A DNA stretch of 64,000 bases from Deltaproteobacteria bacterium (GTDB lineage: Bacteria > Myxococcota > Kuafuiibacteriia > Kuafuiibacteriales > Kuafuiibacteriaceae). Positions 2,464-49,915 of this stretch are shown here, piece by piece. The notes under the pieces were generated by a model. That model had not been told where the DNA came from. It saw only the letters and a program-made list of their open reading frames with translations, and did no database searches. The position numbers and the translations under genes are program-made. Numbering within the stretch: the stretch's first letter is position 1; the number at the start of each line of letters is the position of its first letter. The stretch is taken from contig JAVJQW010000020.1 of NCBI GenBank assembly GCA_040218735.1, positions 36,114-100,113 of the forward strand, in the 5' to 3' direction.

Positions 2464-5400
2464 TCAGAGTCCCGCGATCGCTTCGAAGCTCACGACGTGG
2501 ACCGCGCCCCCCAACGTGGCGTACGCGCCGATCGCCCAGTGGGTGCCGCCGACCGACTGATACGTGAGCGCGGTCTCGAACGACGGCGAGTCACCGACGC
2601 GCGCGGTCTGGCGGAGCTGGCCGGCGCCGTACTCGAACCCGAGGAACCGCGCCTTGTCGTCCGCCGCGAGGGTGACCGGCACGACGAGGTAGGGCGCCTG
2701 CACTGCGCTCGGCTGCGAGCCGACGCTCGCGATCCCGCCGGAGGTTCGCGCGAACGCCTTCGTGAGCGTCATCCCGTCGCCGCTGACGTCCCACGCGACC
2801 ATGCGGAGGTTGCCGTCCTCGTTCGCGAAGACACTCATGAAGTACGTGGCTGCGCCGTCCTCGATACGGGTGGTCTGCACATGCCAGCCGATCTCGAGGT
2901 CCATCGGGTCCGGCTCGCCGCGGCGGTTGACGGTCCACGCGTTGTTGGTGACGTCGAAGACGATCGGTTTGACCTTCAGGTCGTCGGTCCGAACCGTGAC
3001 GACGATGCGATCGCCGAGCCCGTCGACGGCCGAGACCTCCAGGATACCCTCCGGCGAGATGTAGCCGCCGCGGGACGCGATCGTTCCTCCGGGGAGGATC
3101 GCCCAGACCGCGACGTGGAGCTGACCGAGCTGCGTCCGCGTGACCGTGACGAAGTCGGCGGGCTGGGCCCCGCTGAGCTTCACGATCGCGTGGTCTTGAA
3201 TGGCACCCGCGGCGTGGTTGTCGAGCGGGGTGAGCGTGCCGTCCGCCTGCACGTCGTACAGTCGCAGGACGAGGTTGTTGGCGAGGTTGCGCGTCGCGAG
3301 GACGACCCGGTTCGATCCGACGTTGGCGATCTGCGGCTTGCTCGTCCACATCTCGACGCGACTCGAGACCTCGTCGAGGGCCCAGCCGTTGCGCTGCATG
3401 CTCACGAGCTTCACGTTCGGGGCGGACTCCACGGCGACGACCACGGTGCCGTTGTCGACCGAGGTCAGCTCGACGTCCGTGCCCTGTCCGAACAGCGTGA
3501 CGTCGTGGCGCTCGGCGAGCGTGAGGTCCGGGATGCACTCCGCGCGATCGCCGACCGCGTAGCCGTAGGCGTACTTGAAGAGGGCGTCGGCGTCGGGGGC
3601 GCCGCGTTTTGTGTTGATGGTCAACGCGGCTTGCGCGTGCCCGTCGAGCAGGGTCGCGAAGGAGGACAGCCCGGTGACTTCGCCGAGGCCGCCGTTCTTG
3701 CCGAGGACGCTCGCACCCACGTTGCGTGAGGTGTACGGCGGTTCGAAACCCAGCGCGGTCGCCGCGCCGTCACTGTCGAGGAGGTCGGTGCGGAGGAAGG
3801 TGTTCGTGCTCGCGTTCGACAGGATGCCCTCGGCTTCGAGGGCCTCGTAGACCGACACGAGGTCGTCGGTCGAAGCGCGCCAACCACCGGCGGAGCAGTT
3901 CCGCGTGTAGTTGTCGTCGCCGTAGCTCATGAAGGTCTCGCAGAAGGATTGGAGGCCGGTCGTGTTGCACACCAGGCCCTCCGAGCACAGGCCGAACAGC
4001 GTCGCGTTCGGGTCACCTTGGCAGGTCGGTCCGTCGTTCATCACGGCGTCGAGCCACAGGTTTTGCGTCGCGTTCACGATGTCGACCGACGTCTCGCTCC
4101 CGGTCGCCGCCTCGATGAATTCGCGCATCGCGACGGTGTTGGCGTTGCTGTAGTCGCGCGGGCAGCCGAGGTTCGGCAGGACGCTCGGTCCGACGCACGC
4201 GTTGGGCGGCGGCGACATGAACAGCGGCGTGCAGTCGGTCGTGAGATTGTCCTCCGCGGAGCAGAGGCCCGACGACGTGCGCGGGAAGCCCGTCGTGTGC
4301 GCCATCAGGTCGTAGACGTTTCGGACCTGGGTCCACGGGTCGAGGTCGTCCTCGGGGTAGACGTTGCCGTCGAGCTGGGGGCCGATCGCATTGCCGAGCA
4401 GCGCGCCTTCCTCACCCACGCGCATCGCGGTGATCGACGTGATGACCTTGGAGACGCTCCCGATCGCCATGCGATCGTCCCGGTCGAGTGGCGACGCTCC
4501 GCCGACGAGGCGCTTCAGTCCGCTGGCGCGAGACATCAGGACCTTCCCGTTCTGCGCGACGGAGAGCTGGTAGCCGCCGGTTCGGTGCGCGAGGTTGTCG
4601 TGGACGCACTCGGCGAGTCGGCCCATCTGGTCTCCCGTGAGCCGAAGGGCGACGTCGACGTCCTCGTCGAGCTCCACGCCGATGACGTAGCCGCGGCCGT
4701 TCGAGAAGAACGAGAGCACCTCGTCGAAGCCGGTCTCGAGCATGGCGGCGGTCGCCGCGGTGCCCGTCGACTCCGGCGCAAAGGGATCGAAGAGGTAGGA
4801 GCTCGCGACGCCTTCGAGGCGGTCGTAGGTGACGAAGCGATAGGTCGTGCTCGACGTCCGCACGAAGCGCGCGGCGTCGCGGCCGCTGAGGAGGATGTCC
4901 TCCCAGAACGGCGCGTTGCCGAACCCGTTGGGACCGAGTCTTTCGATGCGTGCGCGACCTTCGTGGAGCGGAGCGCTCCCCGCCGCCTTCATCGGGTCGC
5001 CGGCTTCCTTGTAGAGCAGGCGGAACGTGCGGCCGGCCGCAGCGAGGTGATCGACGTTCGACCAGCCCATGCCGATCGCGGCGGTACCGAGCCGAGCGTT
5101 CGGCGCCGCGAGATCGGTGACGCTCGCCTGAGGTCCGAACGTGTCGCCGATGAACAGCCTGGGCGTCGCCTGCGTGAAGACGTCGAAGCGGGTGCGCCCG
5201 TCGAGATCGGGGAAGTTGGTGAAGGTGGTGCGTGATGCCTTGTCGATCTGTCCGCCCGCCAGGACGGGGTAGCGGACGACGCGGCCGTCGGCGGGTTTGG
5301 CGAGGTAGAGGTAGGGCTGACCGGCGTCCTCGGCGACGCCGATGCCGCGCCAACCCGTCCCGCCGAGGGTGCCGCGTTCGACCTCGGTGAGGCCCGTGAC

Positions 5401-10615: not shown

Positions 10616-10669
10616 AAAAAATCATCGCGCGGTAGATCGTTTTTGGCGGGAGGCGCGTTCGAACGCCTC

Positions 10670-12379
10670 ATGACCTCCAGATCCTTCCTTCGTTACGCCT
10701 CCGTCCTCGTCCTTGGCCTCGGCGCCTGCTCCCTCGCCCAGAGCTCCGCCCCTCGCACCACATCCGAAACTCAGGCCCGGCGCCCAGCGCCTCGTGGACC
10801 GGCCCCGGCGGTCAAGACGGCTGCGGTGGCCAAGAAGGCGGACGCCACCGTGGCCTCCCGGGCCGCGCCCGTCGCGCCGACGACCGCGACGCCGCCCGCC
10901 AAACCCAAACCCGCCGACAAGTTCCGACAGACCGCGAAGCTCGAGCGCAAGGCCCCCGCGCCGCCGCCGCCGCCCGCGGAGCCGGTGGCGGCCGACGGTG
11001 ACTTCGAGGGCCGCGCCGACTTCCGCTACAACGCCCCCACCGACACCCGCGAAGACCGCCTGTCGACCTTCGCGGTGGACGTCGACACCGCCGCGTACTC
11101 GATCGCCCGCCGTACCCTCGGCGCGGACCGGATGCCGACCTCCAGCCTTGTCCGCGTCGAAGAGTTCCTGAACTACTTCAAATACGCGTACGGCGCGCCG
11201 CGCGCCGACGGTGAGCTGTTCACGATCGAAGCGGACGGAGCGCGCTCGCCGGTCGACGACACCAAACACATCATGCGCGTCGGCATCCAGGCGAAGTCGC
11301 TCGACCGCCAGACCCGCAAACCGGTCAACCTCGTCTTCCTCGTCGACACCAGCTGCTCCATGACCAGCGGTGACAAGCTCGCCCTGGCGCAGAAGTCACT
11401 CGCGCTCACGGTCGACCAACTCTCCGAGCGCGACCAGGTCGCGATTACGACCTACGCGGGCGGGGTTCGACTCGTGCTCCCGCCGACGAGCGGCGACCAA
11501 AAGGACAAGATCCACGCAGCGCTCCGCGGGCTGCGCACCGGCGGCGGCACCGCGATGGCGTCGGGGATGACGCTGGCCTACCAGCAGGCCGCGAAGATGC
11601 TCTCCGACGATTCGGTCACGCGAATCATCGTGTGCTCCGACGGCGACGCCAACATCGGCGCGACCTCCCCGCACAAGATCCTCGAGTCCATCCAGGGCTA
11701 CGTGAAGGAAGGTGTCTTCCTCTCCACGATCGGGTTCGGCGACGGCAACTACAAGGACGCGATGATGGAGCAGCTCGCGAACAAGGGTAACGGCAACTAC
11801 TTCTACATCGACTCGATGCGCATGGCGGAGCGCGTCTTCGCGCGAGACTTCACCAAGATGGTCCAGGACGTCGCGCAGGACGTGAAGATCCAGGTGGAGT
11901 TCGATCCCACGAAGGTCGCGAGTTATCGGTTGGTCGGCTACGAGAACCGCGACGTCGCCGACGCCGACTTCCGCAACGACGCCGTCGACGCGGGTGAGAT
12001 CGGCGCGGGGCACCAAGTCACGGCGCTCTACGAGCTCACGCTGAAACCCGGCGCCGACGGTCACCTCGCCACGGTCCGCGTGCGCGCCAAGCAGCCGCGC
12101 GGAACCAAGGCCCGTGAGGTCGCCCTCAACGTGCCGATGAACGTCGTCGACGTGCCGTTCACGAAGGCGCCCGACGGGATGCGCTTCGCGACGGCCGTCA
12201 TGGGCGGCGCCGAGCTGCTGCGCAAGAGCCCCTTCGCGGAAGCGTGGACCTACGCGCGCGTCGTCTCCATCGCGTCCGACACGAACCCCAACTGGGATCC
12301 GGATCGGACGGAGTTCATCAGCCTCATGAAGAAGGCAGCCTGGCTCTCGGGTGAGCAGCGCGCCGTGGGTCTGCGATGA
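10670..12379 (+). CDS. YfbK-like vWA domain lipoprotein (vWA_N + vWA + DUF3520)
   Basis: LGAC lipobox, STFAVDVDTAAY, VRVEEFLNYF, DTSCSM MIDAS, SDGDANIG, YRLVGYENR, DAGEIGAGH. Confidence 0.92.
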   Translation: MTSRSFLRYASVLVLGLGACSLAQSSAPRTTSETQARRPAPRGPAPAVKTAAVAKKADATVASRAAPVAPTTATPPAKPKPADKFRQTAKLERKAPAPPPPPAEPVAADGDFEGRADFRYNAPTDTREDRLSTFAVDVDTAAYSIARRTLGADRMPTSSLVRVEEFLNYFKYAYGAPRADGELFTIEADGARSPVDDTKHIMRVGIQAKSLDRQTRKPVNLVFLVDTSCSMTSGDKLALAQKSLALTVDQLSERDQVAITTYAGGVRLVLPPTSGDQKDKIHAALRGLRTGGGTAMASGMTLAYQQAAKMLSDDSVTRIIVCSDGDANIGATSPHKILESIQGYVKEGVFLSTIGFGDGNYKDAMMEQLANKGNGNYFYIDSMRMAERVFARDFTKMVQDVAQDVKIQVEFDPTKVASYRLVGYENRDVADADFRNDAVDAGEIGAGHQVTALYELTLKPGADGHLATVRVRAKQPRGTKAREVALNVPMNVVDVPFTKAPDGMRFATAVMGGAELLRKSPFAEAWTYARVVSIASDTNPNWDPDRTEFISLMKKAAWLSGEQRAVGLR

Positions 12380-12385
12380 CGTGAC

Positions 12386-13486
12386 CTAGGCTGCGGCGGG
12401 CGCAGCTTTGTCCGCAGCCTTGGCCTTCACCGGCGCCGCAGCCACCTCGACGGTCTCGGCGCCCCACGTCGCGGGGGCGCCCAGGTCGACGGGTTCTTCG
12501 CTGAGCACCGCTTCCCGCAGGCGGGTCATCAGCACCGGGCGCGCCTGAAGCCACTCCCGCGCCTTCTCCTTCCCCTGGCCCATCTTCTCCTTCTGGATGG
12601 CGTACCAGGCCCCCGATTTCTCGATGAGGTTCTTCTCGACGCCGAGGTCGATCAACTCACCCGCGACGGAGATGCCCTGGCCGTAGAGGACGTCGAACTC
12701 GGCTTCGCGGAAGGGGGGCGCGACCTTGTTCTTCACCACCTTCACCCGAACGCGGTTGCCGACGATCTGGTCGCTGTTCTTCAGCGCTCCGATCCGTCGG
12801 ATGTCGAGCCGAACCGACGCGTAGAACTTGAGGGCATTACCACCCGTCGTCGTTTCGGGGCTGCCGAACATGACGCCGATCTTGTGACGTGTCTGGTTGA
12901 TGAAAAGGATGGTCGCCTTCGACCGGGCGGCGTGCCCGGTCAATTTGCGCATCGCCTGGGACATGAGTCGCGCTTGAAGCCCTACGTGCGCGTCACCCAT
13001 CTCGCCTTCGATCTCGGCCTTGGGCACGAGCGCCGCGACCGAGTCCACGACGATGAGGTCGACGGTATTGGACCGGATGAGTGTCTCGACGATCTCGAGC
13101 GCCTGCTCCCCGTGGTCCGGTTGTGACACCAGCAGCTGCTCGAGATCGATCCCGAGCGCCTGCGCGTAGCGTGGGTCCAACGCATGCTCGGCGTCGATGA
13201 ACGCCGCGACGCCGCCCGTTCTCTGTACGTTGGCGATCGCGTGGAGCGCGACCGTCGTCTTACCCGAGGCCTCCGGCCCGTACACCTCCACGATTCTCCC
13301 CTTGGGTAGTCCACCGACGCCCAGCGCTCGGTCGACGCCGACAGAGCCGGAAGAGATGACCGCGTCGGGCTCGGTGAATCGGTGCCCTCCGTCGTCTCCC
13401 AAGAGCATGATGGCGCCCCGGCCGAACTGTTTTTCGATCTCCGTCATCGCGGCCTTCACGCCGCTCAACTTCTCTTTGAATCCCAT
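12386..13486 (-). CDS. recA: recombinase RecA (resembles myxobacterial RecA1 paralog)
   Basis: GPEASGKT Walker [45 protein letters not shown]; ATG 13486 downstream of AAGGAG. Confidence 0.97.
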
Positions 13487-13538
13487 TTTCTTGCTTGTCT
13501 CCTTGGCCGCTGTCTTCGAGTCGGCGCCCACAGGACTT

Positions 13539-13555
13539 CGCAAGGCGTGTGCCGG
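13539..13555 (-). promoter_or_regulatory. sigma54-type -24/-12 promoter of recA
   Basis: Minus strand CCGGCACACGCCTTGCG: GG-N10-GC with GGCAC and TTGC. Confidence 0.7.
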
Positions 13556-13586
13556 ATGGAGCAGGGGAGTCAGCGCGCAGAAGAAA

Positions 13587-13640
13587 TCCGATAATCGGAC
13601 GACGTTCGATTGTCGGTCGGACGCGTTCGACTTTCGGACG
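13587..13640. promoter_or_regulatory. 54-bp palindromic upstream element, copy 1 (recA)
   Basis: TCCGA-TAA-TCGGA (13587-13599) and TTCGA-CTT-TCGGA (13626-13638); 40/54 ungapped identity to 16899-16952. Confidence 0.75.
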
Positions 13641-13660
13641 AATACGGTAGGGGTTGCTGT

Positions 13661-14284
13661 TCAGTCGAAGACGCAATTCAGAGACAACGCACCTTCGAGG
13701 CGGCGAAGGTATTCTCTACGTGAAATCAGAGAGGCGCCGAGCTTCATCATGTGCGGCGTGGATTGTTGGATGTCGAGCAACACATAACCACGTGCACGCA
13801 GACGCTCGACGAGGTGAACTAGTGCAATCTTGCTTGCGTTGGACTCGCGACTGAACATCGACTCGCCCGCAAACAGACCAGAGATTGCGACGCCGTAGAG
13901 CCCTCCGATGAGTACATCGTCGGACCACACCTCGACGCTGTGGGCGTGACCTCTTTGGTGGAGCGCGCAATAAGCGGCTTGAAGCTGCGGTGTGATCCAC
14001 GTCGACATTCTTCCTGGTCCCGCCGCCGCGCACGCCTCGATGACATCCGAGAACGCCTCGTCGAAGGTCACCCGGATACCTGGCTTACGAAGCGCCTTTC
14101 GCAGCGTTCGGTTGATTCGCAACGCCTCGAGATCGAGCACGGCACGAGGATCCGGGCTGAACCAGGTCATCAGATCGTCATCGAAGATGGGCCAGGGAAA
14201 GATCCCACTTCGGTATGCGAGGACGAGTCGTTCGACCGAAAGATCACCACCGACGGCGACCAAGCCGTCACGGTTCGCACTCAT
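13661..14284 (-). CDS. aat: leucyl/phenylalanyl-tRNA--protein transferase (true start may lie upstream, to 14329)
   Basis: GLVAVGGDL, AYRSGIFPW, SPDPR, TWI, HAHSVEVW, GGLYG, GESMFS, ASKIAL. Confidence 0.95.
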   Translation of the reverse strand: MSANRDGLVAVGGDLSVERLVLAYRSGIFPWPIFDDDLMTWFSPDPRAVLDLEALRINRTLRKALRKPGIRVTFDEAFSDVIEACAAAGPGRMSTWITPQLQAAYCALHQRGHAHSVEVWSDDVLIGGLYGVAISGLFAGESMFSRESNASKIALVHLVERLRARGYVLLDIQQSTPHMMKLGASLISRREYLRRLEGALSLNCVFD

Positions 14285-14413
14285 CGCGCTGGGGAATACG
14301 AGGCGCTGGGTCAGGATGGCAACGATGACGCCGGTGAGCCTAGTCGATACACGTTACGTTTTCTATCGAATAGAACTTGAAACGAGATCTCTTGACACGT
14401 AGTAATTCAGGCC

Positions 14414-14764
14414 ATGGTTGCAGACAAAGTAGCGAAGGAGCTTCGCTCCGCGCTCGATACGATGAAGGCCGAGCGTAGCGAGCTCGACCAGCACATAGCA
14501 GAACTGGAGCAGATGCTCGCAAAGCTCGGGGCCCCCGCGAAGCGTGGGCCGGGCCGTCCGCCGGGCTCCAAGAACAAGAAGACCCGCGGGGTCAAGGCCA
14601 AGCGTGGCCCAGGTCGTCCGCCGGGCTCCAAGAACAAGAAGAAGACGGCGACCAAGAAGAAGACCAAGCGCAACTGGTCGCCCGCAGCACGTAAGGCGGC
14701 CGCGGAACGGATGAAGAAGATCTGGGCCGACCGCAAGAAGAAGACGACCAAGACCAAGAAGTGA
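14414..14764 (+). CDS. small basic protein: N-terminal coiled coil, two AT-hook-like motifs and a basic C-terminal helix (candidate nucleoid-associated protein)
   Basis: LRSALDTMKAERSELDQHIAELEQML; KRGPGRPPGSKNKK twice; WSPAARKAAAERMKKIWADRKK; host-like codon usage. Confidence 0.75.
   Translation: MVADKVAKELRSALDTMKAERSELDQHIAELEQMLAKLGAPAKRGPGRPPGSKNKKTRGVKAKRGPGRPPGSKNKKKTATKKKTKRNWSPAARKAAAERMKKIWADRKKKTTKTKK
14540..14641 (+). repeat. 42-bp direct repeat with 60-bp period encoding the two AT-hook-like motifs
   Basis: AAGCGTGGnCCnGGnCGTCCGCCGGGCTCCAAGAACAAGAAG at 14540 and 14600. Confidence 0.9.
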
Positions 14765-14766
14765 GC

Positions 14767-15309
14767 TCAGACGAGGAGGCGTGCCCCGTCGTTGGGCACG
14801 CCTTCGTGTTCGAGCAACCAGGCCTTCGCGGCCAACCCTCCCCCGTAGCCGGTCAATCGCAGCGTCGACGAAACGACGCGGTGGCAGGGTACGAACAACG
14901 CACAAGGGTTCATTCCATTGGCGTGCCCCGTGGCGCGAAACGCCTCGGGTTTACCTGCGCGTTTGGCAACCTGCGCGTAGGTCGACGTCGAACCCGGCGC
15001 AATCTTCCGAACCGTGCGCCACACCTTCTGCGCGTAGTCGGGACCTTCCAATGCCAGCGGCACCGCACTCAATGCACCCAGGTCACCGCGGAAATACGCG
15101 CGGATCGCCTGCGCCGCGTCGGTGAGTCCCGAGCCCCGGCCGGACCGCGCACCCGGCGCGACCTCGGGCCCTTCACGCGCGAGGCGCTCCACGACCCGAT
15201 CCCACCGCGGCTGAAACTCCGCGCTCCAGACGCTCTGATCGAACGTCACGATCCAAAGGGGCCCGACCGGAGTCGTCACCGTCTTCATCGCCCAGAGGTT
15301 TGCACTCAT
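14767..15309 (-). CDS. ogt: methylated-DNA--protein-cysteine methyltransferase
   Basis: TPVGPL, YFRG, KVW...IAPG...TYAQVA, NP...VPCHRV, LTGYGGGL..K.WLL.HE; ATGA overlap with the comM stop. Confidence 0.93.
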   Translation of the reverse strand: MSANLWAMKTVTTPVGPLWIVTFDQSVWSAEFQPRWDRVVERLAREGPEVAPGARSGRGSGLTDAAQAIRAYFRGDLGALSAVPLALEGPDYAQKVWRTVRKIAPGSTSTYAQVAKRAGKPEAFRATGHANGMNPCALFVPCHRVVSSTLRLTGYGGGLAAKAWLLEHEGVPNDGARLLV

Positions 15310-16838
15310 ACCATCGCTCTCATCGTCGTCGGCGCGAGCCACGTGCTCGGCCGACGGTAACGCATGGCTTCCGCCACGTGGTTTTCATCGATTCGTTCCG
15401 CGCCGTCGAGATCCGCGATCGATCGGGCGACGCGCAGTCCGCGCTCCCATCCGCGCGCCGACAGGCTCAGCTGCGCCATGCAGGTCTTCATGAGGGTCCG
15501 TGCGCTGCGCGTGAGTGGGGCCTCCCGACGAAGTTGGCGACCGCTCAGCCTCGCGTTGATACCTTGCCGCTCACCGCCGCGCTCTCGCGCCGCCGCGACC
15601 CGTTCACGGATCGCCGAGGAGGGTTCGGAGGCCTCGTCGGTCATCAACGCCTCTGGATCGATCGCAGGCGTTTCGACGATGAGATCGATCCGATCCAACA
15701 AGGCACCGCTGATCCGACCCGCGTAGCGACTCACTTCGTCCGACGAACATCGACACTGCCCCGTCGCGCTCCCCAGCCAACCACAGGGGCACGGATTGGC
15801 CGCTGCCACCAACATGAACGACGCCGGGAGCCGGACGGTTTGTCGCGCGCGCGCGATGACGACCTCACGATCCTCCATCGGCTGTCGCAGCGACTCCAAG
15901 ACGTGCCGCGGTAGCTCCGGCATCTCATCGAGGAACAACACCCCGTGGTGCGCCAGTGAGACTTCACCGGGGCGGATCGGATGCCCGCCTCCGATCAGAC
16001 CGGCCTCACTCACCGTGTGGTGAGGCGCGCGGAACGGACGTGCGTCCAACAGTCGGCCCGACCGGAGCGTGAGCCCCGCCGCCGAGTGAACCTGGGTGAC
16101 TTCGATCCGCTCCGTGAGCGACAGCGGCGGGAGGATCGTACCCACGCGCCGCGCCAACATCGTCTTGCCCGCGCCGGGGTTCCCGACCATCAAGACGTTG
16201 TGACCACCGACCGCGGCAATCTCCAGCGCGCGCCGCGCGAGCGTTTGTCCGCGGACCTCGCTGAAGTCACAGGCCTCGTCGTCGTAGGCCGCCGGTGTCA
16301 CCTCGGTCGACGGAGGCGGGAGCACCGACTCGCCCTTGAGGTGACCGACCAACGCCTCGAGCGTCGGGCTCGCGACGACGTCGATCCCCGCGACACTCGC
16401 CGCCTCCGCACCGTTGTCGAACGGCACGATGATCTTCGTTCGCCCCGAAGCTTTCGCGAGCGCCGCGATCGACAGGGCGCCGCGCACGGCGCGCAGGTGC
16501 CCCGACAGCGACAACTCACCAACGATCAGCGCACCTTCCACCGACTCCGGCGGCAGGTGCCCCGCCGCGACGAGCAAACCCACGGCCATCGGGAGGTCGA
16601 GCGACGCGCCGTCCTTTCTGAGCGCCGCCGGGGCCAGATTCACCGTGATGCGTTTGCTCGGCAGGTGAAGCTCCGCGGAGCGCAAGGCAGCTTGCACGCG
16701 GTAGCGCGCCTCCTTCACCGCGGCGTCGCCCAGGCCGATGATCGAGAAGAACGGTAGGCCCTGCGCGAGCTCGATCTCGACGTCCACCGGCCGGGCCTCG
16801 ACGCCGACGACCGTCGCGGTGCGAATGGAAGCGACCAC
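15306..16838 (-). CDS. comM: YifB/ComM Mg-chelatase-like AAA+ ATPase
   Basis: ITVNLAPA, DLP.A, GELSLSG, GNPGAGKT, RPFRAPHH, GEVSLAHHGVLFLDE, NPCPCG, LLDRID. Confidence 0.93.
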   Translation of the reverse strand: MVASIRTATVVGVEARPVDVEIELAQGLPFFSIIGLGDAAVKEARYRVQAALRSAELHLPSKRITVNLAPAALRKDGASLDLPMAVGLLVAAGHLPPESVEGALIVGELSLSGHLRAVRGALSIAALAKASGRTKIIVPFDNGAEAASVAGIDVVASPTLEALVGHLKGESVLPPPSTEVTPAAYDDEACDFSEVRGQTLARRALEIAAVGGHNVLMVGNPGAGKTMLARRVGTILPPLSLTERIEVTQVHSAAGLTLRSGRLLDARPFRAPHHTVSEAGLIGGGHPIRPGEVSLAHHGVLFLDEMPELPRHVLESLRQPMEDREVVIARARQTVRLPASFMLVAAANPCPCGWLGSATGQCRCSSDEVSRYAGRISGALLDRIDLIVETPAIDPEALMTDEASEPSSAIRERVAAARERGGERQGINARLSGRQLRREAPLTRSARTLMKTCMAQLSLSARGWERGLRVARSIADLDGAERIDENHVAEAMRYRRPSTWLAPTTMRAMV

Positions 16839-16851
16839 GGCGCCGTGCAAG

Positions 16852-16868
16852 AGCAAACACGAGGCCAA
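16852..16868 (-). promoter_or_regulatory. sigma54-type -24/-12 promoter of comM-ogt
   Basis: Minus strand TTGGCCTCGTGTTTGCT: GG-N10-GC. Confidence 0.7.
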
Positions 16869-16898
16869 CCCTGCGCGCGGATCCGGCCCGTCGATATC

Positions 16899-16952
16899 TC
16901 CGAAAACCGGACGACGTCCGAAATGCGTCCGAAAGCGTTCGATTTTCGAAAG
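16899..16952. promoter_or_regulatory. 54-bp palindromic upstream element, copy 2 (comM)
   Basis: TCCGA-AAA-CCGGA (16899-16911) and TTCGA-TTT-TCGAA (16938-16950); same layout as the recA copy. Confidence 0.75.
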
Positions 16953-16961
16953 ACGTCCGGC

Positions 16962-17936
16962 TCAGTCCGAAGTCGCGAGCGCTCCGAGCGAGGCGCCGAC
17001 CGCGTCCGTCGGATCGATCGGCACGCTCCCGCGCCGCACTTCGAAATGGAGGTGAGGCCCCGTCGACCGCCCGGTGTTCCCGACCAGCCCGATCGGCGTC
17101 CCGCGGTGCACCTCCGCGCCGACGCCGACGAGCGCGCGCTTGAGGTGCGCGTACATGGTCACGAAGCCGCCGGCGTGTTGGACGACGACCGTCCGTCCGT
17201 GTCCACCGAGCCACCCGACCGAGGACACCCGTCCGGGGCCGGCCGCGCTCACCACGTCGCCGCGGTTCGCGCCGAGGTCGACGCCCGCGTGAAAGCGCAC
17301 CTCTTCCTCTCCTAGTATGGGATCACGTCGATAACCGAACGGGCTCGTCACGATGAGCGGGGTGAGCGGCCAGGCCAGGCGGACGTCGTACTTGGGTTTG
17401 GTGCTTCGGCGGCGCGCGACCTTTCGGCTCGCCTGCATGTGCATCGCGACCTTCACGAAGTCATCACGGACGCGACGCGCGAGGGTGTCGGGCGGGGCCC
17501 CGAAGCGCATCTTCGTCTTGTCGAGCTCGACCTCCAGCGTGACGCGGGTCTGGATGAGCACACGTCGAGGCAACGCGCCGCGCGGTGCGCCGAGGCCTTT
17601 TTCCACCCGTACTAATATGGCCTCGAACGCTTCGACCATCGGGCGCGGCCAGACGGAGGCTTCGTCGAGCTCCTTCGCGAGCGCCTGCCGCCGCGCGCTG
17701 AAGCGGAGCAGGTCGAGCTCGAGCGCGTGGGCGAGGGCCTCGTAGTCCACGGCGACGGTCCGGGAGTCGTCGAGGGTGAGCGCCCGTCGAGTGGGTCGTT
17801 TGGCCCGCTTCAGCGGGGAGACGGCGGGGCGAAGATCGGCGACGCCGTCGGCGCGATCCTGCTCCCACGTCGTCCGGCCGGTGCTGGCCGAGCAGCCGGC
17901 CAGGGCCAGCGCGAAGACGAGGGCGCGTCGAGGCAC
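16962..17936 (-). CDS. M23 family metallopeptidase lipoprotein
   Basis: LAGC lipobox; TSPFGYRRDP, HAGVDL (HxxxD), YAHL, GNTGRSTGPHLHFE. Confidence 0.92.
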   Translation of the reverse strand: MPRRALVFALALAGCSASTGRTTWEQDRADGVADLRPAVSPLKRAKRPTRRALTLDDSRTVAVDYEALAHALELDLLRFSARRQALAKELDEASVWPRPMVEAFEAILVRVEKGLGAPRGALPRRVLIQTRVTLEVELDKTKMRFGAPPDTLARRVRDDFVKVAMHMQASRKVARRRSTKPKYDVRLAWPLTPLIVTSPFGYRRDPILGEEEVRFHAGVDLGANRGDVVSAAGPGRVSSVGWLGGHGRTVVVQHAGGFVTMYAHLKRALVGVGAEVHRGTPIGLVGNTGRSTGPHLHFEVRRGSVPIDPTDAVGASLGALATSD

Positions 17937-18155
17937 GCCCCATCATTCGGTCAATGGGCGCGGGTTTCAAGCGAATGACCGCCGCCGGCCGGTCGCCGAC
18001 CCCGAGTCCAGGTCCAAGTGAACGGTCGGGGAAGCATGTGGTTGACCAGGTACCAGGGTGGGCACCACCCAAGATCGTATTTTGACACGCGGTTTCGCCC
18101 CCTACCTTTCGGGCTGCCGAGCCCAGCGGCACGACTGGGTGCAGGAGATACTTTC

Positions 18156-21100
18156 GTGACTCGAAGCACGACCAAGACGACCACCGCGCTCCTCGGGGCG
18201 CTCGCGATCACCGGCTTTCTGCCCCGCTGCAGCTGCGACGAAGGCCCCGGCATTCAACGCGCCGCCGTTCAGATGAAGCTGACGTACGTCGAAGAGGAGC
18301 CGTGCTCCGGCGCACAGATCCCGCGACGCATCCCCGACGACTACACCACCGGCCTGAACCCCTCCACCGACTTCGGGTCGGTCGGCACGCGCAGGTTCGA
18401 AGTGCGCTCCGTGGGCATCGCGCCGCTGAACGTCGTCAGCGTGGAGCTCGTGAATCAGGGCACGTCAGGTGAGCCCGACCCCGAGTTCACACTCGCGTTG
18501 ACCGACGTCGCCGGCGAACCCGTCACGCTGCCGGTCAGCATCGCCGCGAGCGCCGATCCCGCCGCGCCGCCCGGCCTGATCATCACGGTCGACTACGGCT
18601 CGCAGGACACGGAGTCCGACCTCGTCAACCTCGTCGTGACGACCGACGATCCCGAGCGCGAGATCGTCGAGTTCGGTCTGTCCGCGGGTCGCGGCCGGAT
18701 CGAAGTCATGGGCAACGCGGTCTGCACCGGGATGGACGGCGTCGAGCGCCCGTGCCTCGACTTCTCGAATGTCAGCATCGACAGCGAGGGCACGGAGACC
18801 GTCGTCATCAAGAACGTCGGCGAAGGTGATCTCGACCTGCGCTCCGTTCGCCTCGAGTCCGAGTCCCTCGAGTTCTGCGCCTTCGAAGCGACGGAGATCC
18901 CGGACGGCGTCGAAGACTGCGCGCCCGTCCCGCAGTGCCTCGTCATCCCGCCCGGCGGCGAGTACCAGGTGCGCGTCCGCTACCGTCCGGTCGACGGTGG
19001 CCTCGACCGCGGCACGATCTACGTCGCGTCCGGCGACGCCAACGCCGGCACGATCGAAGTCCCGATCAACGCGCAGGGCGCGGGCCCCGGCATCTGCGTG
19101 TCGGTCGTCGAGAACGGCGTCGCGACGCCGGTGACCTTCGTCGACTTCGGCCTCGCGAACGTCAACGAAGGCGTGGCGCGCACCGTCCGCCTCGAGTCGT
19201 GCGGCACGGACTCCGTCGACATCACCGAAGCGGTCCTCGAGACGATGGGCCTCTTCGAGACCGGCCCCGAGTTTTCGATCACCCGGCCGTTCGACATCGG
19301 CCTGAAGGCGCCGCTCGAGTTCGCCGAGGGTGAGATCACGTACACGCCCACGTCGGGCGGGATGCACCGCGGCGGCCTGCGCTACCGCATCGCGAGCCTC
19401 ATGACGAACGCGTGGGTGCGCCTCGAAGGCGCCGCGTCGACGTGTGACCTCGAAGTGTTCCCGCAGAACGTCAACTTCGGGACCGTCGCTGGCGGCGCCA
19501 TCGGCCAGCGCGACGTCGTGCTCGCCAACAACGGCGCGCGCGACTGCATGGTCACGGACATCACCGACCCGGACAACAGCTACTCGATCCCGATGCGTCC
19601 GACGCTGCCGCTGACGATCGCGCCCGGCGCAACGCAGATCGTCCGCGTCGAGTTCGCTCCGCCGACCGGCCCCGTCGCGAACTACACGTCGTCGTTCGAC
19701 GTCACGAGCGACGAACCCGGACCGGGCGCGACGAACACCGTCAACCTCAACGCCGAGGGCGGCGGGACGCCGGTGTGCCAGATCCGTCTGACCCCGAGCG
19801 GCAACGACATCGGAATCATGCCGAAGGACGGTCGTCTGCGGTTCGGCGCGGTGAACATCGGCTACACGAAGTCCCTCCCGATTCGCGTCGAGAACGTCGG
19901 CAACGCAGATTGCACGTTCAACAACTTCACGATGACGGTGCAGGAGCCGACGCAGTTCTCCATCACGCCGGTCCGCACCGTGCCCGCGCAGATCCCGGCC
20001 GGCGGTACCTTCCAGCTCGACGTGACGTTCGCGCCGACGATGGAGGCGAGCACGCTCACCGGGACCTACGGCGGCATCTTCAACTACGTGAACTTCACGA
20101 TGAGCGGCCCGGGCCTCGCGCAGACCGACTACGGCATCTCGATCTCCGCGCAGCCCACGCGCCCGACGATCGACGTGATCCCGGGGATGGTCGACTTCGG
20201 CGTGGTCACTTGGGAGAACCCGCTCCCGCCGGACAACCGCAGCACCTGCGGTTCGACGACGCGCTCGGTGAACATCTACAACTCGGGCAACGGCCCGCTG
20301 AACCTGACGGACGTGTCGATCGACACCACGTCGGATCCGGTCTTCCTCATCACCGCGATGCGAAAGGGCGCGCAGACGATCTCGCCGCCGTACCAGAACA
20401 TCATGCTCGCCGCGGGTGAGTCCGCGAGCGTCGACCTGCGCTTCTTCCCGTCGCGCGCGACGCCGGCCGCCCACAACGGCCTGCTCGTGATCGACAACGA
20501 CGTGACGAACGCGGGCGGCATGGGGTCGCCGCTGACGATTCCGTTGCTCGGCGAAGGCACGATCAACTCGCAGCAGACCGACGTCTTCCAGCAGCTCACC
20601 GACAACAAGGTCGACATCCTGTGGGTGGTCGACGACTCGGGCTCGATGAGCGAGGAGCAGAACCTGCTCGCGAACAACTTCGCAGGGTTCATCGGGTACG
20701 CGGACAACCTCCCGGGCGGCGTCGACTACCAGGTCGCCGTCACCACCACCGAGGTGAACGACGGCGTCTCCGGCCACATCTGGGCGTGCAACGGGTACAA
20801 CAAGATCCTCACGCGCAGCGACCCGAACCGCGTCGCCGCGTTCCAGTGCGCCGCGAACGTGACGAACCCGCCGGGCGGCAACTCGCGCCCGAACCCCACG
20901 GGCTCGGACGAGCAGGAGGCGGGGCTGCAGGCCGCGCGCATCGCGCTCGACGTCCCGGTCATCAACAACGAAAACGCCGGCTTCCTGCGGAGCGACGCGC
21001 GCCTCGCGGTCATCATGGTCAGCGACGAGGAAGACCAGTCGGACGGAACGGTGAACCTGTACATCGACTTCTTCCGCAACATCAAAGGCTTCGCGAACCC

Positions 21101-21473
21101 GCAGCTCGTGAGTGTCTCGGCGATCGCCGGTGACGTCCCGGGCGGCTGCGCGACGGCCGTCGAAGGGGCGCGGTACAACGCGGTGGCGCAGGCGCTCGGC
21201 GGACAGTTCGAGTCGATCTGCTCGCAGTCGTGGGCGCAGCTCCTCCAGAACATCGGCCTCGACGTCTTCGCGCTGCGCCGCGCGTGGACGCTGTCGCGCC
21301 CCGCCAACCCGACGACGATCGTCGTTCGGGTGAACGGCGTGGTCGTGCCGCAGAACGGGACCAACGGTTGGACGTACGACTCCACGTCGAACACCGTGAC
21401 GTTCCACGGCATGCAGATCCCGCCTGCGGGATCGACGGTCGAGATCCAGTACGGAACGCAGTGCCTCATGTAG
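18156..21473 (+). CDS. large surface lipoprotein with multiple Ig-like (choice-of-anchor D type) domains and a C-terminal vWA domain
   Basis: GTG after AGGAGA; repeated DFG.V...I.N.G...L modules; DILWVVDDSGSMSEEQ MIDAS, IMVSDEEDQS. Confidence 0.85.
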   Translation: MTRSTTKTTTALLGALAITGFLPRCSCDEGPGIQRAAVQMKLTYVEEEPCSGAQIPRRIPDDYTTGLNPSTDFGSVGTRRFEVRSVGIAPLNVVSVELVNQGTSGEPDPEFTLALTDVAGEPVTLPVSIAASADPAAPPGLIITVDYGSQDTESDLVNLVVTTDDPEREIVEFGLSAGRGRIEVMGNAVCTGMDGVERPCLDFSNVSIDSEGTETVVIKNVGEGDLDLRSVRLESESLEFCAFEATEIPDGVEDCAPVPQCLVIPPGGEYQVRVRYRPVDGGLDRGTIYVASGDANAGTIEVPINAQGAGPGICVSVVENGVATPVTFVDFGLANVNEGVARTVRLESCGTDSVDITEAVLETMGLFETGPEFSITRPFDIGLKAPLEFAEGEITYTPTSGGMHRGGLRYRIASLMTNAWVRLEGAASTCDLEVFPQNVNFGTVAGGAIGQRDVVLANNGARDCMVTDITDPDNSYSIPMRPTLPLTIAPGATQIVRVEFAPPTGPVANYTSSFDVTSDEPGPGATNTVNLNAEGGGTPVCQIRLTPSGNDIGIMPKDGRLRFGAVNIGYTKSLPIRVENVGNADCTFNNFTMTVQEPTQFSITPVRTVPAQIPAGGTFQLDVTFAPTMEASTLTGTYGGIFNYVNFTMSGPGLAQTDYGISISAQPTRPTIDVIPGMVDFGVVTWENPLPPDNRSTCGSTTRSVNIYNSGNGPLNLTDVSIDTTSDPVFLITAMRKGAQTISPPYQNIMLAAGESASVDLRFFPSRATPAAHNGLLVIDNDVTNAGGMGSPLTIPLLGEGTINSQQTDVFQQLTDNKVDILWVVDDSGSMSEEQNLLANNFAGFIGYADNLPGGVDYQVAVTTTEVNDGVSGHIWACNGYNKILTRSDPNRVAAFQCAANVTNPPGGNSRPNPTGSDEQEAGLQAARIALDVPVINNENAGFLRSDARLAVIMVSDEEDQSDGTVNLYIDFFRNIKGFANPQLVSVSAIAGDVPGGCATAVEGARYNAVAQALGGQFESICSQSWAQLLQNIGLDVFALRRAWTLSRPANPTTIVVRVNGVVVPQNGTNGWTYDSTSNTVTFHGMQIPPAGSTVEIQYGTQCLM

Positions 21474-46520: not shown

Positions 46521-46699
46521 GACAACTCCTTCTGCTGTAGGGCGCGCGCCGGTCGCGCCGGTTTCACCCCGGATTTAAGCAGGTTCGCTGCGCTGGGCTC
46601 GGCCGAAAACGGCGTGCGACGTCCGAAATTCTGAGGGTCGACCGGGGCGGAGGTTTCCGATCCTCGATACACGAGGCGCCTAAAGTCCTCGCCCGTGCG

Positions 46700-46729: not shown

Positions 46730-49700
46730 ATGATGCGGAAGTCGGGAATCCTCCTCGCCACGACATGTGTCCTCGCCGCCTGCTCCGACGGGCCGCTCGA
46801 ACCGGGGGCCCAACCGACCCCCAACCCCGGTGACACGACCTTTCACTCCGCCGACGGCTCCCCCGGACAGCGGACCGCGCGGGAGGCGGGCGGCGACGCG
46901 ACGCTCGCCGGGAGCGTCCCCACCGACGACGCGGCGAACGGCACCTCCGAGGCGCGCACCGTCGAAGAGGGCGACATCTACCGCGTCGGTCCCAACGGGC
47001 TGATCCTCAACCTCAACGCCTACCGCGGTCTCCAGATCATCGACTTCTCGAATCCGGCCGACCCCGAGATCATCGGGCGCGTCCGCGTCTCCGGCGCGCC
47101 GGTCGAGATGTACCAGGTCGGCGATCGCGTCTACATGCTGATCAACAACTGGTACGGCTACTACGGCAACCGCGAGTCACTCCGCGCGCAGGCCTACCAC
47201 GGCGGGCTCGTGCTCGTCGCCGACGTCTCGGACCCGCGCGCCCCCCGCATCACCGGTCGCGCCCAGGTCCCCGGGAACATCGTGTCCAGCCGCCTGACCC
47301 GCGGTAACGGACAAGAGGCCTTGTTCGTCGCGGCGACCGACTACGACTCGACCTACGTGAAGAGCTTCTCGATCTCGTCCGCCGGTGCGCTCGCCGCGCA
47401 GACCGAGCTCGAGCTCGGCGGTTACGTCACGGCGATCCAGGCGAGCGCCGACTACCTGATGGTCGCGAGCTTCGACTGGAGTCAGCGCGGCGCGGGCAGC
47501 GACGTGTCGCTGATCGACATCAGCGACCCGAGCGGCGCGATGGTCTTCGGCGACACGGTCACCGTCGCCGGCATGGTCCAGAACAAACACAACATGAACG
47601 TGCACGGGAGCGTCATGCGCATCGTCTCCGGCAACAACTGGAGCTCGTCGAGCAACACGAACCACGTGCAGACGTTCGACATCGCGAACCCCAACCAGGT
47701 CGTCCCGGTCGGACACGAGACGTTCGGCGCGGGTGAGTCGCTCTTCGCGACGCTGTTCCTCGGCAACAAGGCGTTCTTCGTGACCTACGAGCGCGTCGAC
47801 CCGTTCCACGCCTTCGAGATCACCGACGCGGGCGGCATCACGGAGCGCTCCGAGTTCATCGTCTCCGGCTGGAACGACTTCTTCCGCCCGGTGATGACCG
47901 AGACCCGCCTGGTCGGGATCGGCAAGAACGACCAAGACGGCACCACGCTCGCCGTCAGCCTCTACGACATCACCGACCTCGACAACGCGCGCCCGCTCCT
48001 CGACCGCGACGAGATCGATCTGACGTGGAGCTGGTCCGAGGCGAACTGGGACGACCGTGCGTTCTCCGTGCTCGAGGACGCGACCAGCGTCGTGAGCGAG
48101 GACGGCTTCGTCGAGACGGGCCTCGTGCTCTTGCCCTTCAACGGGTGGGATCGCGACTCGAACCGCTCTGCTTCCGGCGTCCAGATCTTCACGTTCTCCA
48201 ACGCGACGATCACCCGCCGCGGCGTCATGGAGCACGACACCCCCGTCCGCCGCACGTTCATGGCCGACAGCGACGAAAACCTCGCGGGCAACCTCTCCGA
48301 GGCCGAGCTGAGCTTCTTCGACGCGACGGACCCGGACGCGCCGCAGGAGATCGGACGCGTCGAGCTCGCGCCGAACTACAGCGGCATGGTCGTGTTCTCG
48401 AACTACGGCGTGCGCCGCAGCGACGACTCGGCCTACTGGGGCTGGTGGCGTGGTGGTCAGGTCGACGCCGACGCGAAGGACCGCCTCGAAGTCGTCTCAC
48501 TCGCCGGCGACGTCGACATCGCCGACGCGATCGCGACCGTCGAGATCCCGGCCGGTGCGCGCGTGCTGAAGATCTCGGATGACCGCATCGCCGTCGTCGC
48601 GACCGAATACTCGGACACCACGCGAGCCGCGCCGCAGGTCACGACGACGGTCGAGCTCATCAGCTTCGCGGATCCGACGAACCCGCGGCGGCTCGGCAGC
48701 TTCGAGACGAACGACATCCCGCCGACCGACGGTGGGTACTATCCGGCGTACGGGGACTTCGGGTGTTTCAACTGCGGTCGCTACTACGGCGGGACTTCGG
48801 ACCTTTACGTCGCGGGTGAAGCGCTGGTCATCGCCCAGCCGGTCTCCGAGAGCGCCGTCGAAGGCCAGGAGCACGTCGAGTATCGCTACCCGACGCAGCA
48901 GCGTTGGGAGAACTGTTGGGACGGCAACGGACCGCGCGCGTGCACGTACGTCAGCGGCGGCGTGCAGTGCACGCAGCTCACGCGCGTCGACGGCACCGAA
49001 GAACCCGAGGTCTGCTACGGCGAGTTCTTCCGCTGCTCGCAGGACGACGAGGGCCAGACGGAGTGCGTCGAAGTCGACGAGCGCGATGTCGCGGTCGAGA
49101 CGTACACGTCCACGCACGAGCGACGCCGCTACTGGTACCACTTCGATCTTCACGTCATCGACGTGAGCGCGGACGCGCCGACGGTCGGCCCGGTCGTGCG
49201 GATGGCGCGGACCGAGGAAGCCGTGAACGTCCTCGCCGTCGAGGACTCGCTGTTCATCACGCACAAGCGCCCGCACCGCGTCGAAGGCGACGCGCGTCCG
49301 TACGTGAGGTACTTCTTCCGCGAGATCGGTTTGGCGAACGCGCAGCGCCCGAACGTGTCGGCGGACGTCAACATCCCCGGGACGCTGGTGAGTGTCGACG
49401 GGAACAAACTCGTCACGCGCGACCACCTCTGGGGTCGCCGCATCGTGGAGACGAGCGTCAACCGCCTCACGCGGATGGGCAGCGTCGCGAGCCTCGACGG
49501 CACGCGTCGCTTCGCGGACCGGCATGTCGAGCGCATCGAGCTCGACGGCCGCGGGCACGTCCTGGTCAGCCACGGGCCGACGTGGTCCTACGGGTCCTCG
49601 CCGACGTCGGAGCAGGTCGTCCGCTTGGCGGCGCTCGATCTGGATGGTCCGCGATTCGGGCTGCTGTCCGAGGTGGACATCGACGCGTGGGCGAGCCTTC

Positions 49701-49915
49701 GCGCGGCGTGGAACGGTCGCGCGCTGTTCGCGGTCCCGGGCGGGATGTTGGTCGTGAACCTCGACCGCATCGAGCGGCCGGTCGCGCAGGCGTACTTCCC
49801 GGTGATCGGGTGGCCGAGCGACATCACGGTCAGCGGCGACGACGTGTACCTGTCGGCGGGGCGCTTCGGCGTCTACACACTCGACGCCAACACCGCGAAC
49901 CTCCTGGAGCGCTGA
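46730..49915 (+). CDS. beta-propeller domain-containing lipoprotein
   Basis: VLAAC lipobox; VEEGDIY, GESLFAT.F, VTYERVDP, VSLYDI, SEANWDDRAF. Confidence 0.85.
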   Translation: MMRKSGILLATTCVLAACSDGPLEPGAQPTPNPGDTTFHSADGSPGQRTAREAGGDATLAGSVPTDDAANGTSEARTVEEGDIYRVGPNGLILNLNAYRGLQIIDFSNPADPEIIGRVRVSGAPVEMYQVGDRVYMLINNWYGYYGNRESLRAQAYHGGLVLVADVSDPRAPRITGRAQVPGNIVSSRLTRGNGQEALFVAATDYDSTYVKSFSISSAGALAAQTELELGGYVTAIQASADYLMVASFDWSQRGAGSDVSLIDISDPSGAMVFGDTVTVAGMVQNKHNMNVHGSVMRIVSGNNWSSSSNTNHVQTFDIANPNQVVPVGHETFGAGESLFATLFLGNKAFFVTYERVDPFHAFEITDAGGITERSEFIVSGWNDFFRPVMTETRLVGIGKNDQDGTTLAVSLYDITDLDNARPLLDRDEIDLTWSWSEANWDDRAFSVLEDATSVVSEDGFVETGLVLLPFNGWDRDSNRSASGVQIFTFSNATITRRGVMEHDTPVRRTFMADSDENLAGNLSEAELSFFDATDPDAPQEIGRVELAPNYSGMVVFSNYGVRRSDDSAYWGWWRGGQVDADAKDRLEVVSLAGDVDIADAIATVEIPAGARVLKISDDRIAVVATEYSDTTRAAPQVTTTVELISFADPTNPRRLGSFETNDIPPTDGGYYPAYGDFGCFNCGRYYGGTSDLYVAGEALVIAQPVSESAVEGQEHVEYRYPTQQRWENCWDGNGPRACTYVSGGVQCTQLTRVDGTEEPEVCYGEFFRCSQDDEGQTECVEVDERDVAVETYTSTHERRRYWYHFDLHVIDVSADAPTVGPVVRMARTEEAVNVLAVEDSLFITHKRPHRVEGDARPYVRYFFREIGLANAQRPNVSADVNIPGTLVSVDGNKLVTRDHLWGRRIVETSVNRLTRMGSVASLDGTRRFADRHVERIELDGRGHVLVSHGPTWSYGSSPTSEQVVRLAALDLDGPRFGLLSEVDIDAWASLRAAWNGRALFAVPGGMLVVNLDRIERPVAQAYFPVIGWPSDITVSGDDVYLSAGRFGVYTLDANTANLLER

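Follow-up and report, generated by a model that had tools for sequence, protein, structure and literature searches.

A candidate sigma-54 competence regulon marked by phased palindromes at comM and recA1 in Myxococcota

Introduction

Why do a recA paralogue and the helicase gene comM share one upstream sequence? Both genes, recA1 and comM (yifB), lie on the minus strand of a 64,000-nucleotide stretch of a deltaproteobacterial genome (contig JAVJQW010000020.1; "the window" denotes this whole stretch), each preceded by a cassette of palindromes and a sigma-54-type -24/-12 motif. An initial annotation of this DNA proposed that a single sigma-54 enhancer-binding protein co-activates recombination and competence genes from such cassettes. 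Competence regulators are lineage-specific. Within the literature searched (titles, abstract beginnings and open papers), neither a sigma-54 competence regulon of this kind nor any competence regulator of Myxococcota has been described. Here we report that the cassettes are a real, conserved cis-regulatory element, and weigh which protein acts on them and to what end.

Results

The two cassettes (13587–13640 and 16899–16952) align without gaps at 40 of 54 nucleotides, as first described. The pattern TYCGA-N3-YCGRA occurs four times in the window, always within a cassette (13587, 13626, 16899 and 16938) and in pairs 39 bp apart. GG-N10-GC elements face both genes on the minus strand, with 34 bp (recA1) or 33 bp (comM) from the GG to the first palindrome, again as annotated. 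The central TYCGA-N7-YCGRA element of the initial annotation is present at 13605 and 16917, and also at 3980, but is better read as a third, degenerate copy of a 15-bp box. A sigma-70 scan of 12200–18100 gave one site, and none at either cassette. In a single RNA run, a fraction of 0.07 of the words was present; the contigs of that run were mostly recA of other organisms.

The repeated unit is the 15-bp palindrome GTYCGAWWWTCGRAC, in which GTYCGA half-sites flank a 3-nucleotide (nt) AT spacer. It was extended from 36 matches with an all-AT spacer in the genome carrying the window (G000; 11.6 Mb, 68.8% GC), and the box matrix was built from the same 36 sites. The 9-bp core alone was dropped as a search pattern, being too common. 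Scanning G000 gave 34 sites at a score of ≥19, versus 0–3 in each of ten column-permuted controls, and 52 sites at ≥15 versus 0–8, a control that is only partly independent given that the training sites come from G000 itself. Boxes occur singly or in arrays, spaced 18–21 or 39–40 bp.

Boxes are coupled to sigma-54 motifs. These were scored with a 16-mer matrix written from the textbook consensus, the cassette sites being kept out of its training. Of 84 box-directions from strong boxes in G000, 12 have a motif scoring ≥8 that begins 30, 31 or 41 nt away, where the background rate is 1.4e-4 per position. Box-plus-promoter composites number 32 versus 8.6 expected, and about nine of them may be chance. 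An ATG or GTG stands 12–14 nt past the motif in 25 of the 32. Genome-wide, 398 intergenic motifs score ≥11, and an in-frame ATG follows 12–14 nt later 174 times, versus 0–6 times per position beyond 18 nt. The motifs therefore behave like real promoters of leaderless or near-leaderless mRNAs. They are very common in G000 and mostly leaderless, and many of the genes downstream encode lipoproteins or secreted proteins. The genome also encodes RpoN (TIGR02395, 459 bits) and about 90 activators (strong PF00158 matches).

The coupling is one of position. At 12 sites with a box-to-promoter distance of 29–31 nt, the 29-nt spacers show no relation to one another (mean identity 0.31): the distance is conserved, the intervening sequence is not. 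Outside G000, 67 distances cluster at 29–33, 39–42, 47–54, 59–64, 70–73, 79–82 and 90–91 nt, with a best period of about 10 bp (10.0–10.2; R 0.72); they come from related genomes, and kinship overstates their p-values. Several dyads phased to the promoter in this way are the layout expected of an upstream enhancer.

Host genes behind box and motif in G000 are comM, recA1, radC (PF04002) and a gene for a 112-aa ComEA-like HhH protein, which scores 50.6, below the TIGR00426 cut-off of 53.1. To these yraN probably belongs. Its motif lies 31 nt ahead of the start and a three-box array directly past its stop (C61:393719–394496), while a divergent Fis-like gene fills its upstream region; the 3' array recurs in genomes G001 and G010 and is a possible downstream enhancer. 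ComM, a helicase, and YraN, a nuclease, pair up to process the D-loop formed in transformation (PMC13663708). The recombination and competence theme of the initial annotation is thus widened by radC, the comEA-like gene and yraN. Mobile-element and nuclease genes, unforeseen by that annotation, follow about 10 of 31 distinct G000 promoters: three Rpn/YhgA genes, a Uma2 nuclease gene, a RAYT-like gene (NF047646 match below cut-off) and four IS91/ISCR-like copies, some broken. Another target is an integrase-looking open reading frame (ORF) with no family match. A family of 120–140-aa proteins, 47–50% identical, has two cassette-bearing members in G000 and one in G006 (L010:4140–4568, L644:4229–4600, L138:3670–4020); Atlas likens it to DUF5655, below the naming bar and as a lead only.

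Under the initial annotation, a lack of conservation at orthologues would have counted against the proposal; the layout of sigma-54 promoter and palindromic upstream sites is kept there. At comM, recA1 and radC, every locus from the family of G000 has the motif (19/19, 17/17 and 18/18) and most have the box (13/19, 13/17 and 13/18, one of the last weak). The comM start codon stands 12–15 nt past the motif at all 19 family loci. Outside the family, 9 of 10 comM loci have the motif (28/29 overall) and 3 of 10 a matrix box. A motif stands at -22 to -35 of yraN in 14 of the 19 family loci and in none of the 11 others; boxes lie just 3' of the stop in three of the 19 and upstream in two. Of 31 HhH loci, 6 have box and motif ahead of a comEA-like gene; many of the remaining loci hold paralogues, and the cassette-bearing proteins have N-terminal hydrophobic leaders. 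They also precede an operon of a small gene and comEA in G034 and G035. That small gene, the first behind the cassette, encodes a 63–68-aa protein without a Pfam family (L369:1200–1394, L134:3143–3331, L172, L199, L375). Its nearest named Atlas clusters (score 0.75, a lead only) are the single-stranded-DNA-binding Enc34/DUF736, which makes it a candidate single-stranded-DNA-binding protein of transformation; it was not found in G000.

The strict 15-mer was found in 13 of the 31 genomes searched, and the reversed sequence in none. A scan of GTDB representatives for box and motif returned 116 stretches, 80 of which were counted by hand. Gaps in phase (30–31 or 40–43 nt) were found in 22 of 24 rows labelled Kofleriaceae, Haliangium, Myxococcales, Myxococcota or delta/Deltaproteobacteria, and in 19 of 56 rows from other lineages, which is the chance rate. 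In the former lineages, the cassette precedes radC, comM, recA, Y1 transposase genes, genes for Rpn-like proteins and a gene for a 65-aa unknown protein before comEA. In a phylum scan of 301 genomes for a box+YGGC pattern, counted by hand with a reversed control, three families had it in 10 of 18, 9 of 17 and 2 of 2 genomes. A different perfect palindrome, computed from its sequences, stands in G021 at comM, at comEC and at the comEA operon; the motif therefore differs between lineages.

G033 has 19 boxes versus 0 in the control. One of its loci (L381, C16) has the cassette ahead of an FHIPEP-family export gene of the FlhA/SctV type, and at others it precedes small DUF6722 and antitoxin-like genes. 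Three Bdellovibrionota loci (L181, L193, L201) have box and motif before secretin and pilin-like genes. This possible link to a Tad/Flp pilus is kept as a lead only, since the box counts of G031 and G032 (9 and 1 versus 3 and 3 in the control) are not clearly above control.

Could the palindrome instead be a repetitive extragenic palindromic (REP)-like or transposon-end hairpin, spread by HUH transposases and only secondarily reaching host promoters? The share of transposase and nuclease genes among the G000 targets would fit, as would G033, in which at least 7 of the 16 loci retrieved lead into Y1 transposases, several of them near-identical. So would the near-identity of the comM and recA1 cassettes of G011 over about 59 nt, and tandem arrays between convergent genes in G000 (C61:393719 and C45:104316). 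However, the former array lies at the 3' end of yraN, which itself has a sigma-54 motif, and is present at that place in G001 and G010 as well. Strong copies number only 34–52 and are mostly promoter-phased, with helical phase fixed although the spacers are unrelated; boxes are kept at orthologous single-copy host genes in many genera, and an Rfam search of 12300–18000 gave no structured-RNA match. We consider spread of this kind very improbable, and a shared sigma-54 regulon behind the cassettes very probable.

The candidate for its activator is a 534-aa FHA-FHA-AAA+-HTH protein (C17:372492–374096 of G000; FHA, Sigma54_activat and HTH_8 domains). A clear best orthologue exists in 18 of 18 family genomes, and full-length copies in G019, G020, G023, G026, G029 and G030. 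This is the only orthologous group common to G019, which has four activators and a sigma-54 motif at comM, and G033, which has ten; it is also present in G031, G032, G034 and G035. No C17 orthologue was found in G025, the sole genome whose comM lacks a sigma-54 motif. The recognition helix is near-constant in the family, altered alike in G019 and G029 (where a variant box was judged by eye) and degenerate in G023, which has no box. Homologues bear generic names and come from sources labelled Deltaproteobacteria or metagenome-assembled genomes of Myxococcota. Judged by profile only, we lean towards the C17 protein as the activator that binds the box.

Another FHA activator, adjoining lexA in G000 (C45), was downgraded: 16 best orthologue loci have no box array, and box-bearing G020 and G030 have no full-length orthologue. 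The array at its 3' end in G000 (C45:104316–104351) lies between that gene and a zinc-ribbon ORF, with an antisense sigma-54-like motif reading into the activator gene, and is not kept in relatives.

Within the same sigma-54 regulon, the palindrome might be bound by another protein, either a second FHA activator (C32:10578 or C41:249419 of G000) or a stand-alone Fis-like protein acting by the promoter as a bender or repressor. The box has the G-N13-C, AT-centred geometry of sites for Fis/NtrC-type HTH proteins, and the gene opposite yraN is Fis-like in 12 of the 19 family loci. The proximal box lies unusually close to the promoter, and G000 has about 90 activators. The second FHA group is common to G000, G031 and G033–G035 and supplies the best match in G021, but a search at E≤1e-95 gave no member in G019, G022, G023 or G029, and G022 has boxes. 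Sigma-54 promoters require an activator (PMC4641369), and arrays of two or three phased dyads resemble enhancer layouts such as that of PexR (PMC12754779). A binder other than the C17 protein is, in our estimate, unlikely.

Independence from LexA, as proposed in the initial annotation, is supported by the absence of a LexA box at recA1 or comM. The best matches to the Myxococcus-type consensus CTRHAMRYBYGTTCAGS (PMC9705874) have five mismatches at recA1 and four at comM, versus two at lexA of G000. LexA was rejected as the box binder: a Myxococcus-type box is present at lexA itself and absent from the cassettes. The second recA of G000 (recA2, C58) has no box and motif, and the 13 other recA loci returned from the family have no box. 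In G020–G023, comM and a recA stand back to back, and this synteny suggests an ancestral comM-recA operon that later split, recA1 gaining a cassette of its own; in G011 the two cassettes are still near-identical.

Freedom from LexA would also suit a DNA-damage or replication-stress regulon. In Myxococcus xanthus, recA1 lacks a LexA box and is induced late by UV (PMC7029660), and RecA1 increases after mitomycin C (PMC12288472). In the window, comM is joined to the alkylation-repair gene ogt, and the uptake core (comEC, dprA, pili) is mostly without a cassette. Against this, the 32 G000 composites include no recognisable uvr, ruv, recN, dnaE2/imu, ssb or radA gene, and cassettes stand at ComEA-like genes and yraN, in G021 also at comEC. 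Nor does ogt hold up as the core member it was first taken for: it lies within 1.5 kb of comM in just 3 of 29 comM loci and is a local, lineage-limited passenger. A damage regulon seems to us rather improbable, and natural transformation the likely purpose.

Table 1. Features of the recA1 and comM loci, in window coordinates.
Feature	Position	Strand	Remarks
recA1, RecA paralogue without LexA box (target)	12386–13486	-	TIGR02012 521 bits, above cut-off; leader ~40 nt
Sigma-54 -24/-12 motif of recA1	13539–13554	-	matrix score 12.0; predicted start near 13528
Proximal 15-bp palindromic box, recA1	13586–13600		score 22.6; 31 nt ahead of promoter 16-mer
Degenerate middle box, recA1	13604–13618		score 11.1; 49 nt ahead of promoter
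Distal box, recA1	13625–13639		score 18.4; 70 nt ahead of promoter
aat, Leu/Phe-tRNA-protein transferase (neighbour)	13661–14284	-	TIGR00667 above cut-off; adjoins recA1 in 15/17 family loci
Small Lys/Arg-rich protein with 60-nt internal repeat (neighbour)	14414–14764	+	no family match
ogt	14767–15309	-	TIGR00589 above cut-off, PF01035; start codon overlaps comM stop by 4 nt
comM/yifB helicase	15306–16838	-	TIGR00368 530 bits, above cut-off; GTG 13 nt past promoter 16-mer
Sigma-54 -24/-12 motif of comM	16852–16867	-	score 12.3; predicted start 16839–16841
Proximal box, comM	16898–16912		score 18.0; 30 nt ahead of promoter
Very degenerate middle box, comM	16916–16930		score 2.9
Distal box, comM	16937–16951		score 23.0; 69 nt ahead of promoter
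M23 peptidase gene (upstream neighbour)	16962–17936	-	end 11 nt from distal comM box; adjoins comM in 11/29 loci

The features of both loci are collected in Table 1. The comM mRNA is predicted to be leaderless or nearly so, and the overlap of ogt with comM makes their co-transcription likely. The small Lys/Arg-rich protein, encoded between ogt and aat, is histone-like in composition. A VWA lipoprotein gene (10643–12379) converges on recA1; upstream of the M23 gene lies one for a large choice-of-anchor D/MIDAS (CglD-like) adhesin (18018–21473). Elsewhere in the window, a weak box (13.6) at 46621–46635, 65 nt before the sigma-54 motif of a gene for a 1061-aa beta-propeller lipoprotein (46730–49915), may be chance.

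Discussion

We conclude that the cassettes are probably enhancer and promoter of a competence regulon, with one FHA-domain enhancer-binding protein as its predicted activator, a reading drawn from sequence comparison. Dimers of an activator with a Fis-type HTH would sit on two or three boxes at about -62, -81 and -102, on one helix face. The bound activators would form an AAA+ ring and open the sigma-54 holoenzyme from nearby or, in the case of yraN, from a downstream position. The output would be mostly leaderless mRNAs for a periplasmic ComEA-like DNA receptor, the helicase ComM with the nuclease YraN as its partner, RadC and a dedicated RecA1. RAYT/IS200-like, IS91-like, Rpn and Uma2 genes, whose products act on single-stranded or incoming DNA, would be turned on along with them. 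Through its FHA domains, the C17 protein could tie the program to Ser/Thr-kinase signalling or to another protein ligand.

Several observations weigh against this reading. The main gap is the uptake core, which may be constitutive or under other control. The initial annotation had foreseen cassettes at dprA, comEA/comEC, comF, ssb, radA or pilin genes. A cassette was found at the comEA-like gene; in G000, dprA, comEC, comF, ssb and radA have no box plus promoter, and pilin genes are absent from the 32 composites. Half-boxes at the former five were discarded for want of a sigma-54 motif in register, those at dprA and comEC also being unconserved in relatives, where box and motif occur at 1 of 30 loci each (L079, and L122 with a variant box). 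About half of the G000 targets are unknown or secreted proteins. In the phylum scan, the largest family sampled was at background (6 of 123 genomes, versus 20 of 123 with the reversed control).

As to the activator, no box adjoins the C17 gene, and its clade of 32 members has a support of 0.55 and lacks the G005 and G017 copies. G021 has its variant palindrome yet no full-length C17 orthologue; G026 has an orthologue and sigma-54 motifs and no matrix box; G033–G035 are possibly incomplete genomes. In the family copies, the Arg of the canonical FHA phosphothreonine site is mostly missing. The spacing is also tight: measured from the -24 GG, the centre of the proximal box lies only ~38 bp away and that of the distal one ~77 bp, with 60–120 nt in some genomes, and enhancer distances are given as >50 bp (PMC12754779) or ≥100 bp (PMC4641369).

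The broadest form of the proposal can be put only tentatively. In Myxococcota and neighbouring deltaproteobacteria, a master competence switch, a phosphoprotein-sensing FHA activator, might act from phased sites close to the promoter and drive sigma-54 transcription of comEA, comM, yraN and radC, together with a RecA1 dedicated to transformation. Single-strand (HUH) transposases and Rpn nucleases might have captured the cassette so as to act upon foreign DNA entry. If true, this would explain why a second, LexA-independent recA is retained, and the regulon would give a reason for such a recA1 in myxobacteria. Now that the binding motif, its targets and a candidate activator can be named, competence control in Myxococcota is directly testable, and a constitutive activator with its FHA domains deleted could render hard-to-transform myxobacteria competent. 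The cassettes also suggest that single-strand transposases perhaps time their activity to DNA uptake.

Parts of this arrangement have precedents. A genome-wide prediction of sigma-54 promoters found COG2003 (RadC) and some transposase COGs enriched among the predicted targets (PMC12316311). There the COG2003 enrichment was read as DNA repair, and the accessible part of that paper gives no enhancer motif or activator; competence, recA, radC, YifB and DNA uptake do not occur in its main text. Compared with REP/RAYT systems, in which REP-linked groups average 57–140 copies of the commonest 16-mer (PMC5581495), our 34–52 strong copies are fewer, by a modest margin. As in those systems, the palindrome lies beside a RAYT gene (on C29 of G000 and at several G033 loci), here always upstream and as part of the promoter.

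PexR of M. xanthus is likewise an enhancer-binding protein of a myxobacterium, and several dyad repeats precede its sigma-54 promoters, but its dyad is CACCG-n6-CGGTG, its sensor a GAF domain and its targets peroxide genes, and the regulator lies beside its target (PMC12754779). In the RpoN1/PehR system of Ralstonia solanacearum, natural competence needs sigma-54, although RpoN1 is proposed to act via pilA alone, and the available portion of that report describes no comM/recA/radC/comEA regulon (PMC4371752). The LexA/DdiA damage control of M. xanthus resembles our system in its two recA genes, recA1 being without a LexA box (PMC9705874, PMC7029660, PMC12288472); it differs in that DdiA is an XRE protein, and those sources, as far as accessible, give no sigma-54 promoter or activator for recA1.

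The CRP-S/Sxy (TfoX) regulon of Haemophilus, E. coli and Vibrio differs in its 22-bp CRP site, where we find a sigma-54 motif with phased 15-bp dyads. Its core is TGCGA (PMC1635313) and our half-site GTYCGA, and the box does not fit a CRP site. Our set includes a recA paralogue, whereas dprA, rec2/comEC, ssb and pilus genes are mostly without a site here. The two regulons are nevertheless alike in placing one cis-element at comE1/comEA, comM and radC, all members of the CRP-S competence regulon (PMC1635313). They are alike too in their mobile passengers, as RAYT is induced along with competence in E. coli (PMC5581495, citing Sinha 2009).

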